Assembly (NCBI RefSeq): GCF_039921305.1 | Contig: NZ_JBDSCA010000061.1 | Coordinates: forward strand, 11,153 to 75,152 | DNA length: 64,000 nucleotides | Reading direction: 5' to 3' | From: Mucilaginibacter sp. | Lineage (GTDB): Bacteria; Bacteroidota; Bacteroidia; Sphingobacteriales; Sphingobacteriaceae | Shown here: in pieces, positions 59,424 through 62,618 of the stretch | Layout: each line of letters begins with the position of its first letter | Position numbering within the stretch: the first letter of the stretch is position 1 | The notes under the pieces: generated by a model | What the model was told of the DNA's origin: nothing | The model's database searches: none | Seen by the model: the letters and a program-made list of their open reading frames with translations, nothing else | Program-made: the position numbers and the translations under genes

Positions 59424-59633
59424 TTACATTTTTTTAGCTACTGAGTCTTTTTTAACTACAGTGTCAGCTTTAGAAATTGAAGTGTCTTTTTTAGCTGTTG
59501 TGTCAGCAGCCATTTTAGCTGAATCTGCTTTTGCAGCTGAATCAGCAGCAGAAGTTTTTTTCGGACCACCGCAAGAAGCGAATGCTACTGCTACTACTAA
59601 CGCTAATGCGCTTAATTTGATAGAGTTTTTCAT
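59424..59633 (-). CDS. Small lipoprotein A (69 aa)
   Basis: MKNSIKLSALALVVAVAFAS-C21; mature part with DSA, DSA, DTT, DTV, DSV. Confidence 0.88.
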   Translation of the reverse strand: MKNSIKLSALALVVAVAFASCGGPKKTSAADSAAKADSAKMAADTTAKKDTSISKADTVVKKDSVAKKM

Positions 59634-59666
59634 GTTAGTTTTTTAAAAGTGATTAATAGTTTAGGC

Positions 59667-59695
59667 TTAATACCTAAAACGAAAAAAGGTAACCC
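59667..59695 (-). promoter_or_regulatory. ECF-type promoter GGGTTACC-N14-GTATTAA (gene A)
   Basis: Plus strand TTAATAC 59667-59673 and GGTAACCC 59688-59695. Confidence 0.8.
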
Positions 59696-59752
59696 AATTA
59701 TTTTGAAAAAAATAATTAAGCTACCCTTTTGTTATTAATTACTTAATAAAAA

Positions 59753-59962
59753 TTACTTTTTAGTGGTGCTATCAACAGTAGTAGTTGTTGTAGTTGTTGT
59801 AGCAGTGCTATCTTTCTTAGCAGCTGTATCAACTTTAGCAGTTGAATCTACAGTTGTAGTTTTAGTTGAATCTACAGTGCTGGTTGATTTGTTACCACCA
59901 CAAGCAACAACTGATAATGACAATACTAATGCTAAAGCGCCTAATTTGAATGAATTTTTCAT
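59753..59962 (-). CDS. Small lipoprotein B (69 aa)
   Basis: MKNSFKLGALALVLSLSVVA-C21; DST x4, DTA, poly-Thr. Confidence 0.88.
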   Translation of the reverse strand: MKNSFKLGALALVLSLSVVACGGNKSTSTVDSTKTTTVDSTAKVDTAAKKDSTATTTTTTTTVDSTTKK

Positions 59963-59987
59963 GTTTGAAGTTTTTATTATTTTAAGC

Positions 59988-60016
59988 TTAATACTAGCTT
60001 ATAAAGAAGGTAACCC
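59988..60016 (-). promoter_or_regulatory. ECF-type promoter GGGTTACC-N14-GTATTAA (gene B)
   Basis: TTAATAC 59988-59994, GGTAACCC 60009-60016. Confidence 0.8.
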
Positions 60017-60055
60017 TAAAAATTAAAATTAATTTCAGGGTTACGCTTCATCAAA

Positions 60056-60277
60056 TTACATTTTTTTAGTCTCTGTCTTTTTAGTTTCAGTTGTAACTGT
60101 AGTATCCTTTTGTACTGGAGCAGTAACAGATGTATCTTTCTTAACTGTATCAGTTACAATTGTAGATGAATCAGTTTTGGTTGTATCAGAACCTGTAGAA
60201 GTTTTGTTACCACCACAAGCAACAACTGATAATGATAATACTAAAGCTAAGGCACCTAATTTGAATGAGTTTTTCAT
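60056..60277 (-). CDS. Small lipoprotein C (73 aa)
   Basis: First 25 aa identical to B; DTT, DTV, DTT. Confidence 0.88.
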   Translation of the reverse strand: MKNSFKLGALALVLSLSVVACGGNKTSTGSDTTKTDSSTIVTDTVKKDTSVTAPVQKDTTVTTETKKTETKKM

Positions 60278-60300
60278 GATTTAATGTTTTTAATTTTAAC

Positions 60301-60329
60301 TTAATACAGATAACTTGAAAAGGTAACCC
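60301..60329 (-). promoter_or_regulatory. ECF-type promoter GGGTTACC-N14-GTATTAA (gene C)
   Basis: TTAATAC 60301-60307, GGTAACCC 60322-60329. Confidence 0.8.
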
Positions 60330-60375
60330 AATTATTTTAAAGAAAATATAAATCGTATCAGGATATTATATTTTA

Positions 60376-60648
60376 TTACTGCTTAGTAACTTTCTTTGTT
60401 GTAGTGGTAGTCTTCTTCTTTTCAACTTTGTTAGATACCGTATCAATAGGTTGCTTTAAACTTTTGTTTGATACCGTGTCAATAGGTTGCTTTAAGCTCT
60501 TGTTTGATACCGTGTCAAAAGGTTGCTTTAAACTCTTGTTTGATACTGTATCCTTACCTTGTTCTGTTGATTTTCCTTTTGGATCACAAGCTACAATGCT
60601 TGATGCTATTACCAAACCTAAAGCGGCTAATTTAAATGAATTTTTCAT
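60376..60648 (-). CDS. Small lipoprotein D (90 aa) with a 12-aa tandem repeat
   Basis: MKNSFKLAALGLVIASSIVA-C21; (DTVSNKSLKQPF/I) x3 plus DTVSNK. Confidence 0.88.
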   Translation of the reverse strand: MKNSFKLAALGLVIASSIVACDPKGKSTEQGKDTVSNKSLKQPFDTVSNKSLKQPIDTVSNKSLKQPIDTVSNKVEKKKTTTTTKKVTKQ

Positions 60649-60674
60649 GATGGGTTTTTTGGTTTAATTTACCC

Positions 60675-60703
60675 TTAATACCTTATTATGAATAAGGTAA
60701 CCC
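60675..60703 (-). promoter_or_regulatory. ECF-type promoter GGGTTACC-N14-GTATTAA (gene D)
   Basis: TTAATAC 60675-60681, GGTAACCC 60696-60703. Confidence 0.8.
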
Positions 60704-60899: not shown

Positions 60900-60928
60900 G
60901 GGTTACCATTTGAAAATAAACGTATTAA
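60900..60928 (+). promoter_or_regulatory. Same promoter motif in front of the sigma gene (autoregulation)
   Basis: GGGTTACC 60900-60907, GTATTAA 60922-60928, spacer 14. Confidence 0.8.
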
Positions 60929-60931
60929 GTA

Positions 60932-61501
60932 GTGAATAATAATGTGAACAATCCGGCACCGGCAGATAACGAAGCTATTTTAGGCATCCTGAATAACTCG
61001 GAGGCCATGCTTAAACGGATTTATTTAGCATACTTCCCCATGGTACTCCAACTGGTTATCACCAATAATGGTAACGAAGACGATGCCAAGGACATTTACC
61101 AGGAAGCTATTATCGTTCTTTATAATAAGGTTAGGGCAGGCAATTTTGAACTAAGCAGCAAGCTTAAAACATTTATCTACTCTGTTTGTCGAAGGTTATG
61201 GCTCAAAAGGTTAACCCAACTGAGCCGTTACGGTGGCGACATTCACGACCTGCAGGAGTATTTACCCGTAGAAGAAGATATAGCCAACCACGAAGAGAAA
61301 GATATACAGTTCAACAAAATGACTGGTGCATTAGGTTTGTTAGGCGAACCCTGCAAAACCATTATTGAAGACTTTTATATAAACGACAGATCGATGCAGG
61401 AGATCTGCGAAAAATTTGGCTATACCAATGCGGATAATGCCAAAACACAAAAATACAAATGCCTGCAACGCTTAAAGAAACTATTCTTTCAGCAAAAATA
61501 A
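60932..61501 (+). CDS. ECF sigma-70 factor
   Basis: Region 2 DAKDIYQEAIIVLY..LKTFIYSVCRRLWLKRL; region 4 LGEPCKTIIEDFY..SMQEICEKFGYTNADNAKTQKYKCLQRLKK. Confidence 0.92.
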   Translation: MNNNVNNPAPADNEAILGILNNSEAMLKRIYLAYFPMVLQLVITNNGNEDDAKDIYQEAIIVLYNKVRAGNFELSSKLKTFIYSVCRRLWLKRLTQLSRYGGDIHDLQEYLPVEEDIANHEEKDIQFNKMTGALGLLGEPCKTIIEDFYINDRSMQEICEKFGYTNADNAKTQKYKCLQRLKKLFFQQK

Positions 61502-61514
61502 AAGGAGTAAAAAG

Positions 61515-62618
61515 ATGAGTGATATTGAATTAATGGCAGTAGTTGAACGGTACCTTAACGGCGAAATGAATGCCGATGAGCGTATCCGCTTTGAAATGCT
61601 TCGCCGCGAAAACGCCGAGGTTGATAATACAGTTAAAGAACACCAGGAATTTACCGGCCGCCTAAAACAATATGGCGAACGCCTGGCGTTCGAAAACTTA
61701 TTGAACGATATCCATAACGAAATTGATGTTCAGGCCCTGAAAGATGAGTTTGTACATCACCCATCATTAATAGTTCGTTTATGGAGAAACCACCACTCAA
61801 AAATATCTGTAGCGGCATCAATTACCATTTTCGCGGTTTTAGGTACTTTATTCCTTACGGGATATTTGAAAAGCCAGAAACAAGAGAATGATGTAATTTA
61901 CCTTAAGCACGAAATTGCCCAGGTTAAGCATAAAAACGATGTGATATCGCAGTCTATTAATACCTTAAATATACGGCCAAAACAAATGGCGCCATCAAAC
62001 TATCATGGCACCGGAACAGGTTTCGCTATATCTTCCGACGGTTACCTGGCAACTAATTTCCACGTAATAAACGGAGCCGATTCTGTATACATCCAAAACG
62101 CTGATGGTACTGCCTATCACGCCAAAATTGTATCTACCGATCCGGCAAATGATATCGCTATCCTAAAAATAACCGACCCATCTTTCAAATCATTTGGTGC
62201 ATTACCTTATGGGTTCAAAAGAAGTAAGTCAGATTTAGGCGAAGATGTATATACTTACGGTTACTCAAAAGATGATGGTTTTTATTCAAAAGGCTATATA
62301 AGTTCCGGTAATGGCTTTAAAGGTGATACCGTAAAATATCAACTCAGCATGGATGTTGACTTTGGTAACAGTGGTGGTCCGTTGTTAGATGCTAAAGGCA
62401 ATGTAATAGCCATTATAAGCAGTAAACAAGCCCATACCGATGGCGCCTTCGCTATCAAATCAAAATATTTATATAAAGCCATTCAGGCCATTGCTCCCGA
62501 TTCGTTAAGATCAGACAAAATTGTACTAAGCTCTAAAAGCAAGTTTGCCAACCTGGGCCGTACACAGCAATTGAATAAATTACAGAATTACGTATTCATG
62601 GTAAAGGTTTACAATTAA
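61515..62618 (+). CDS. Anti-sigma-like N-terminus + TM helix + trypsin-like (S1C) serine protease, no PDZ
   Basis: VERYLNGEM..ER..FE, TM ISVAASITIFAVLGTLFLTGYL, intact triad ATNFHV / NDIAIL / GNSGGP. Confidence 0.88.
   Translation: MSDIELMAVVERYLNGEMNADERIRFEMLRRENAEVDNTVKEHQEFTGRLKQYGERLAFENLLNDIHNEIDVQALKDEFVHHPSLIVRLWRNHHSKISVAASITIFAVLGTLFLTGYLKSQKQENDVIYLKHEIAQVKHKNDVISQSINTLNIRPKQMAPSNYHGTGTGFAISSDGYLATNFHVINGADSVYIQNADGTAYHAKIVSTDPANDIAILKITDPSFKSFGALPYGFKRSKSDLGEDVYTYGYSKDDGFYSKGYISSGNGFKGDTVKYQLSMDVDFGNSGGPLLDAKGNVIAIISSKQAHTDGAFAIKSKYLYKAIQAIAPDSLRSDKIVLSSKSKFANLGRTQQLNKLQNYVFMVKVYN

Follow-up and report, generated by a model that had tools for sequence, protein, structure and literature searches.

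Tandem Small Lipoproteins with Dense Arrays of the Bacteroidota O-Glycosylation Sequon, and Their Apparent Control by an Adjacent ECF Sigma Factor, in Mucilaginibacter

A 64,000-nucleotide stretch of DNA from Mucilaginibacter sp. (NCBI RefSeq assembly GCF_039921305.1, contig NZ_JBDSCA010000061.1, positions 11,153 to 75,152 of the forward strand) was analyzed, and this whole stretch is referred to here as the window. It contains four tandem genes for short lipopeptides, numbered 1 to 4, which are oriented divergently from the genes for an extracytoplasmic function (ECF) sigma factor and for a protease-fused, anti-sigma-like protein. The coordinates of these genes and of the associated sequence elements are collected in Table 1. 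All four precursors begin with MKNS(F/I)KL, which is followed by a hydrophobic core, and the lipobox cysteine was found at residue 21 in every case. The sequences ahead of this cysteine are MKNSIKLSALALVVAVAFAS-C, MKNSFKLGALALVLSLSVVA-C (two precursors) and, in the fourth precursor, MKNSFKLAALGLVIASSIVA-C. Substrates of signal peptidase II were recognized by an N-terminal basic region, a hydrophobic core, and a lipobox of the form [LVI][ASTVI][GAS]-Cys within about 15–30 residues. Each of these features was found in the four precursors, and the signal peptide is kept in the 62 relatives described below.

Table 1. Positions in the window of the lipopeptide genes, the neighboring regulatory genes, and the predicted transcription signals
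Feature	Coordinates	Strand	Remarks
Lipopeptide gene 1	59424..59633	-	69 aa; mature part 49 aa, CGGPKK...AKKM; 5 strict sequons, 6 D-S/T-x
Lipopeptide gene 2	59753..59962	-	69 aa; mature part 49 aa; 5 sequons; T8 run
Lipopeptide gene 3	60056..60277	-	73 aa; mature part 53 aa; 3 strict sequons, 5 D-S/T-x; conserved tail TTETKKTETKKM
Lipopeptide gene 4	60376..60648	-	90 aa; mature part 70 aa; CDPKGK start; 4 x DTVSNKSLKQP(F/I) repeat
Predicted ECF-type promoter box GGGTTACC-N14-GTATTAAG, gene 1	59666..59695	-	exact box; ATG 32 nt downstream
Predicted promoter box GGGTTACC-N14-GTATTAAG, gene 2	59987..60016	-	exact box
Predicted promoter box GGGTTACC-N14-GTATTAAG, gene 3	60300..60329	-	exact box
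Predicted promoter box GGGTTACC-N14-GTATTAAG, gene 4	60674..60703	-	exact box
Predicted promoter box GGGTTACC-N14-GTATTAAG ahead of the ECF sigma gene	60900..60929	+	autoregulation signature
ECF sigma-70 family factor, divergent from the peptide genes	60932..61501	+	Pfam Sigma70_r2, TIGR02937
Anti-sigma-like N-terminus, one transmembrane helix, and periplasmic trypsin-like (HtrA/DegS-like) protease without PDZ	61515..62618	+	Pfam Trypsin_2, 2.7e-25; NCBIfam degP/MarP/DegS, partial
Terminator-like hairpin after gene 2	59683..59730	-	overlaps the -35-like GGGTTACC box of gene 1

The mature parts of the four peptides were found to be built from the unit (A/K/V/T)-D-(S/T)-(T/A/S/V)-K, repeated at a spacing of 5–7 residues. 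The core of the unit is D-S/T-x, and the triplet D-[ST]-[ALVIMT], the strict sequon of the Bacteroidota general O-glycosylation system, occurs 5 + 5 + 3 + 4 = 17 times. The number expected by chance was determined from 100,000 shuffles that preserved the composition of each peptide; the mean was 3.5 (standard deviation 1.6), the maximum was 11, and the observed value of 17 was never reached. Ser or Thr directly follows 20 of the 21 Asp residues, and the exception is the Asp that adjoins the Cys of peptide 4. With the wider rule used in glycoproteomics, which tolerates Ser at the +2 position (PMC8729774 Table S6 notes; PMC12871550), the number of candidate sites rises to 20. The mature lengths of 49, 49, 53, and 70 aa and the 5, 5, 3, and 4 triplets given in a first-pass annotation of the window, made from the letters alone, were reproduced exactly by the open reading frame (ORF) coordinates and the motif count.

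The conservation of the triplet was determined using 36 related loci that were fetched via the neighboring anti-sigma/protease gene. Every small ORF behind the shared promoter box was taken as a relative, regardless of its sequence, and this procedure returned 62 genuine peptides and two spurious frames. Since the relatives were picked by promoter box and not by sequon content, they were not selected by the feature under test. Over the 3,038 mature residues of the 62 peptides, 296 strict sequons were counted, compared with 57.8 ± 6.6 in shuffled sequences, and Ser or Thr follows Asp in 359 of 376 cases (95%). The residue at +2 is T (48%), A (24%), S (14.5%), V (7%), or L/I (4%), in agreement with the published acceptor preference for L, I, V, T, A, S, and M at this position (PMC12871550). 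Lysine is the second most common residue of the family (19.6% of the composition) and occupies 60% of the +3 positions, but it was never found at +2. The residue preceding Asp is A, K, V, T, or M in 87% of the units.

In the loci labeled Chitinophagaceae or Chitinophagales, the Lys-rich linkers are lost (for example, PMDSTMVPMDSTIAPIDTTVAPQ) and D-S/T-hydrophobic is kept, so that the D-S/T-x triplet is the sole feature of the mature part to survive into the Chitinophagaceae-labeled loci. A database search with peptide 2 returned eleven further relatives of 61–106 aa (P0001–P0011) from metagenomes, Pedobacter, and Mucilaginibacter, all composed of K/V-D-S/T-T/A/V units. The best orthologue of peptide 1 is 67% identical over the mature part (locus L002). 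The mature part of peptide 3 is 79% identical to its orthologue in locus L004, where the protease is 63% identical. On these comparisons the D-S/T-x core appears to be under selection across genera. The first-pass annotation had matched the triplet to the O-glycosylation sequon and had proposed its enrichment in homologues relative to shuffled controls as a check. Both points were borne out, and a loss of D-S/T-x in homologues, which would have spoken against glycosylation, was not seen, since the promoter-selected relatives and the Chitinophagaceae-labeled loci alike keep the triplets.

The same comparisons bear on whether these are genes at all. The frames are short, of low complexity, and accompanied by open frames on the opposite strand, and one of them holds an internal tandem DNA repeat; they could have arisen by chance in DNA of low complexity or be what is left of the N-termini of larger, decayed lipoproteins. 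However, at least four Sphingobacteriaceae genera share the signal peptide, lipobox, size, promoter box, and gene order, the orthologues reach an identity above that of the adjoining protease (up to 79% versus 63%), and gene 2 is followed by a terminator-like hairpin. A nonfunctional origin is scarcely credible, and it appears to be effectively refuted by conservation.

No Pfam family matched any of the four peptides above threshold, and the sub-threshold matches to New_glue, Acanthaporin, and DUF7537 were treated as noise. The AlphaFold2 model of peptide 1, calculated from a 20-sequence alignment, had a predicted local distance difference test (pLDDT) score of 55 and a predicted template modeling (pTM) score of 0.20, with values of 47–53 in the mature part and weak helices. 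The model of peptide 4 (pLDDT 60, pTM 0.12) had no secondary structure. The large hydrophobic residues F, W, Y, L, and I together account for 1.5% of the mature parts across the 62-peptide family. These results agree with the earlier statement that the peptides have no folded domain. The mature parts are thus predicted to be intrinsically disordered, and the lipoproteins to be about 5–7 kDa in mass.

Such a composition would also suit peptides that carry no glycans. Unglycosylated, hydrophilic, polycationic, and disordered lipopeptides might serve as hydrophilin-like or late embryogenesis abundant (LEA)-like protectants, or as membrane shields that alter charge, during desiccation, freezing, or cationic-peptide stress, and the D-S/T-x-K unit would then be kept for solubility or helix propensity. 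The mature parts are rich in K, T, S, D, and A, with a mean net charge of +3 and few large hydrophobic residues, and weak helices were modeled in the Ala/Lys-rich peptide 1. Many of the related loci are from Mucilaginibacter of soil, lichen, and cold habitats, and the glycoproteome supplements of P. gingivalis, P. intermedia, and T. forsythia hold no glycosylated relative. However, we consider this explanation unlikely. It leaves unexplained why Asp is followed by Ser or Thr in 95% of cases and why Lys takes 0% of the +2 positions and 60% of the +3 positions. Moreover, the Chitinophagaceae-labeled versions lose their Lys-richness and keep D-S/T-hydrophobic, and exported sequons of Bacteroidota are reported to be almost always occupied (PMC12871550).

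Sequon frequencies were also determined for the genome as a whole. The ORFs were divided by a crude classification into exported-like and cytoplasmic-like. The ratio of observed to expected sequons was 1.20 in the exported-like ORFs (1,718 observed versus 1,432 expected) and 1.00 in the cytoplasmic-like ORFs. For the control motifs E-S/T-hydrophobic and N-S/T-hydrophobic, the ratios in exported-like ORFs were 0.83 and 1.02, respectively. The four peptides contain 7.7 sequons per 100 aa, compared with 0.36 per 100 aa in exported-like ORFs, and they rank among the five densest of the 143 lipobox ORFs of the genome. The features expected of substrates of the Bacteroidota system, namely sequons (17 strict and 20 extended sites) within exported, disordered segments, are thus present. 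According to published work, nearly all sequons in noncytoplasmic proteins of Bacteroidota are occupied, and sequons introduced by engineering are glycosylated as well (PMC12871550). For Pedobacter heparinus, a member of the same family as Mucilaginibacter, a fucosyltransferase of the glycan locus has been found to be functional (PMC8698959).

The substrates of this system from B. fragilis, T. forsythia, P. gingivalis, and F. johnsoniae share with the peptides the sequon, export by a signal peptide, and the location of the sites in soluble, unstructured segments, and lipoproteins are a major glycosylated class among them. Those substrates are folded proteins with few sites each, whereas the peptides described here have no fold and present one site per 5–7 residues. 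In the P. gingivalis supplement, the number of sites reaches a handful per protein, and 13–42 sites are predicted per ten abundant proteins of each compartment (PMC8729774). Eukaryotic mucin domains offer another parallel, in that a membrane anchor is joined to a disordered peptide that amounts to a string of glycan acceptor sites. However, mucins are modified by GalNAc transferases through a different chemistry, and they have no homology to the peptides.

The closest named family is NCBIfam NF050142, 'PG1828 family lipoprotein', for which the curated cutoff is 50 bits. The scores of peptides 2, 3, and 4 were determined to be 35.8, 31.5, and 17.1 bits, respectively, peptide 1 had no match, and a search of the whole genome of this organism returned 0 matches over the cutoff. 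Membership in NF050142 is not claimed, both because the scores are below the cutoff and because matches at the same level, made through the signal peptide, also occur in 7 unrelated control genomes (Bacillus, Caulobacter, and others). To characterize the true members, 301 genomes from the class were searched. Those above the cutoff (L045–L049) are lipoproteins of 60–75 aa with repeated (V)D(S/T)A, for example, ...CKKADAAATETVDSTAVTVDSAAAVVDSAAAVVDSAATTVDSAAAKVEEAAKEVKK, and tandem arrays from other Sphingobacteriaceae genera score 42–54 bits. The peptides of the window resemble the true members, and also those that score near the cutoff, in their small precursors (69–90 aa here), the lipobox, the disordered mature part, and the repeated (V)D(S/T)(A/T). 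The true members are rich in Ala, Val, and Glu, whereas the peptides described here are Lys-rich, with D-S/T-x-K units and a KKM end. Furthermore, each true member is encoded by a single gene behind a housekeeping-type promoter (TAnnTTTG), whereas here 1–4 tandem genes follow an ECF-type promoter. From these comparisons the peptides appear to be related to the PG1828-type small lipoproteins, but divergent, rich in Lys, and below the score cutoff of the family. All that is known of the prototype, PG1828/PGN_1739 of Porphyromonas gingivalis (7.1 kDa), is that it is triacylated, activates TLR2, and copurifies with lipopolysaccharide (LPS).

Several automatic names attached to relatives were rejected. 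P0011 is called 'Entericidin' in UniRef. Entericidin A/B are small bacterial lipoproteins of similar length, but the four peptides have no amphipathic helix and no toxin/antidote gene pairing, and no entericidin Pfam match was found for them up to E = 0.1. The name of P0011 is most likely an automatic label. The JGI names of P0001, P0005, and P0006 (61–81 aa), among them 'ABC-type glycerol-3-phosphate transport substrate-binding protein' and 'nitrate reductase cytochrome c-type subunit', were set aside as annotation mis-transfers driven by the signal peptide.

We consider it fairly probable, from the sequence evidence above, that the four peptides are O-glycosylated sequon carriers, and we hold any specific role with less confidence. 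Several points weigh against this reading. For PGN_1739/PG1828 itself, the P. gingivalis glycoproteome gives 4 predicted sites, of which 0 were identified, and 0 spectral matches (PMC8729774 Table S6, Veith 2022). Peptides of the VDSAA, VDSTA, and DSAAA types are absent from the glycoproteome supplements of P. intermedia and T. forsythia, and no glycosylated member of the family was found in those two supplements or in that of P. gingivalis. In the peptides described here a Lys recurs every 3–5 residues, and tryptic digestion would yield glycopeptides too small to be usable, a property that probably accounts for the lack of such peptides in published data. The oligosaccharyltransferase of the Bacteroidota general O-glycosylation system is undiscovered (PMC12871550), and a literature search for a newly identified one returned none. 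Recent DNA slippage has made some of the arrays, and raw sequon counts are inflated by it. In peptide 4, a 36-bp tandem DNA repeat of 3.7 copies (60420–60552) is the source of all four DTV triplets, and these are therefore not independent events. Finally, the role as a glycan layer, proposed below, is one that we only infer.

Two ORFs of about 1,025 aa with a TMEM260-like (DUF2723) GT-C domain were observed elsewhere in the genome (C15:184695-185234, reverse strand; C77:12809-13342, forward strand). Among 14 control genomes, this family was found in Bacteroides thetaiotaomicron only. The two genes are possible candidates for protein O-glycosyl transferases and are offered as a lead only.

If the peptides are glycosylated, the precursors would be exported by the Sec pathway and lipidated, and most or all of the D-S/T-x sites would then be modified in the periplasm by the general Bacteroidota O-glycosylation system. 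A glycan mass of 1,436 Da is listed in the P. gingivalis supplement (PMC8729774). On the assumption that the glycans are of about 1.4 kDa, a peptide of about 5 kDa would gain some 7 kDa from five occupied sites; the product would be over half carbohydrate by mass, and the glycan array would therefore be its functional part. The lipoglycopeptides might form a layer of hydrated glycans held by lipid anchors, which would most likely face the periplasm. The roles of 'glycan sink' and 'decoy receptor' proposed in the first-pass annotation are pure speculation.

The periplasmic location had been argued from the absence of an acidic surface-export signal after the cysteine. The absence itself was confirmed, as none of the 62 family peptides has a pair of neighboring acidic residues between +2 and +7 of the Cys. 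The acidic export signals K-(D/E)2, SDDDD, and SDDFE were defined in Capnocytophaga, Bacteroides, and Flavobacterium (PMC5080379). However, an acidic pair is present in only 2 of the 40 SusD-like, presumably surface, lipoproteins of this genome. The absence of the signal is uninformative for localization because the SusD homologues here mostly lack it as well. These SusD-like lipoproteins typically start with C-(K/N/Q)-K-x-(F/L)-(L/V)-D (for example, C61:40030-40575), and Sphingobacteriaceae may use a different signal for surface export. The abundant surface lipoproteins of P. gingivalis avoid sequons, and its main glycosylated class consists of lipoproteins of the periplasm and inner membrane (PMC8729774). 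By analogy, the lipopeptides are probably periplasm-facing.

The arrangement of promoter boxes points to a common regulator. Exactly five copies of the box are present in the 5.66-Mb genome (41.6% GC), all in this locus, and the distance from box to gene is 22–32 nt for the four peptide genes. Each of the four genes is thereby predicted to have its own promoter and to be transcribed separately. The hairpin after gene 2 contains the GGGTTACC box of gene 1, and termination and initiation would therefore share sequence. In 31 of 31 related loci with enough upstream flank, 1–4 peptide genes lie behind the box and adjoin the sigma/protease genes. Eight Sphingobacteriaceae genomes were checked for the protease, and arrays were searched for class-wide at E ≤ 1e-5. 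The peptide arrays adjoin the sigma/protease genes in 5 of the 8 genomes. Two same-genus genomes gave no array match at this threshold, but related same-genus loci do show the adjacency; with these loci taken as species representatives, the count is 7 of 8. The remaining genome has its peptide gene away from the sigma/protease genes, still behind the box. The module is conserved in at least four Sphingobacteriaceae genera and has relatives in Chitinophagaceae-labeled assemblies.

A shared motif and a conserved linkage, the two marks by which the regulon of an ECF sigma factor is recognized in sequence, were thus both found for the four peptide genes, which look like the regulon of the adjacent factor. 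In this lineage a single ECF sigma factor thus seems to drive the peptides, since the box and the linkage are conserved here and the PG1828-type genes outside Sphingobacteriaceae have housekeeping-type promoters. In the proposed circuit, the membrane anti-sigma factor, with a periplasmic protease domain of its own, would be inactivated, the ECF sigma factor would be released, and the peptide genes would be turned on, so that the lipoglycopeptides would be the effector of an envelope-stress response. The paper on the re-classification of ECF sigma factors contains no mention of a protease-fused anti-sigma factor or of a lipoprotein regulon.

HtrA-type proteases prefer an aliphatic residue at P1, and the residues that precede Asp in the peptides resemble this preference. 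The lipopeptides could be ligands or substrates of the anti-sigma-fused protease that close a feedback loop. Under-glycosylated peptides might be cut before Asp, with A, V, T, M, or K at P1, and so report the capacity for O-glycosylation or the supply of undecaprenyl phosphate; alternatively, the response might be turned off once the protease is occupied by mature peptides. The regulon apparently comprises only the sigma operon and the peptides, the linkage to the PDZ-less HtrA/DegS-like protease holds in all 31 loci, 87% of the units have A, K, V, T, or M before Asp, and the -KKM C-terminus of half of the family is a possible recognition element. We regard this proposal, which is purely inferential, as quite improbable. 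The PG1828-type genes outside Sphingobacteriaceae have housekeeping-type promoters and no protease neighbor, and the basic role of the family is therefore independent of the protease. A feedback role would also be compatible with the effector role. A combined version would hold that the ECF regulon consists only of sequon-array lipopeptides and forms an inducible glycan-coat circuit of Sphingobacteriaceae, and probably of some Chitinophagales, in which the protein would be no more than a lipid-anchored carrier of O-glycans. Such a circuit could also monitor O-glycosylation capacity, if the fused protease reads the glycosylation state of the same peptides. This version is unlikely as a whole.

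The C-terminus is the other recurrent element of the mature peptides. Across the 62-peptide family, 31 peptides end in -KKM, 34 in Met, and 21 in K, although Met makes up only 4.5% of the composition. The -KKM end is seen in the window at, for example, 59424–59435 and 60056–60067. A conserved C-terminal element in otherwise repetitive peptides may be a recognition or processing signal. Small lipoproteins with strongly conserved, Lys-rich C-termini might also act as Lpp-like tethers that attach to peptidoglycan or a different polymer of the envelope by a covalent or electrostatic link, with the sequons being incidental. Bacteroidota are not known to have Braun's lipoprotein. However, neither a coiled coil nor a trimer-forming sequence is present in the peptides, no fold is predicted for them, their last residue is usually Met rather than Lys, no linking enzyme is implicated, and the sequon statistics would go unexplained. 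A tethering function is very improbable.

The PG1828-type class of small lipoproteins and the sequon are both already known. In the literature searched, there is no description of the PG1828-type class as arrays of acceptor sites, nor of the Lys-rich tandem variant or its wiring to an ECF sigma factor and an anti-sigma/protease protein. The function of the phylum-wide O-glycosylation of Bacteroidota is still described as largely unknown (PMC12871550). If the peptides are glycosylated, the glycan itself could be a functional product, beyond the decoration of a folded protein. They would also provide natural, minimal acceptors of about 50 residues with multiple sites for in vitro assays and for genetic screens directed at the missing transferase. 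The connection of glycan display to a very small ECF regulon would help to show under which conditions the cell calls for additional envelope glycan. PG1828, known only as a TLR2-stimulating contaminant of P. gingivalis LPS, would then belong to a class of sequon-array lipopeptides that spans the phylum.

The genome also encodes two more small lipoproteins that are rich in sequons. The first (C55:135888-136076, forward strand) has 62 aa and a KDTTTKM end, and the second has 89 aa (C23 near 71943, reverse strand). Since the C55 gene has no ECF-type box upstream, the genome appears to contain at least one unlinked and differently regulated relative.

The GTG start listed for the ECF sigma factor (60932) is only 2 nt past the promoter box, and the added residues EVILGILNN are conserved in other loci. 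The mRNA of the sigma factor may be leaderless, or else translation may begin from the ATG at 61007. In loci L051, L056, L057, and L063, from other Sphingobacteriaceae genera, the box of the array gene nearest to the sigma/protease genes overlaps TACCTTTG, which resembles the housekeeping -7 element of Bacteroidota. The peptide copy with this overlap may have constitutive expression in addition to being inducible.

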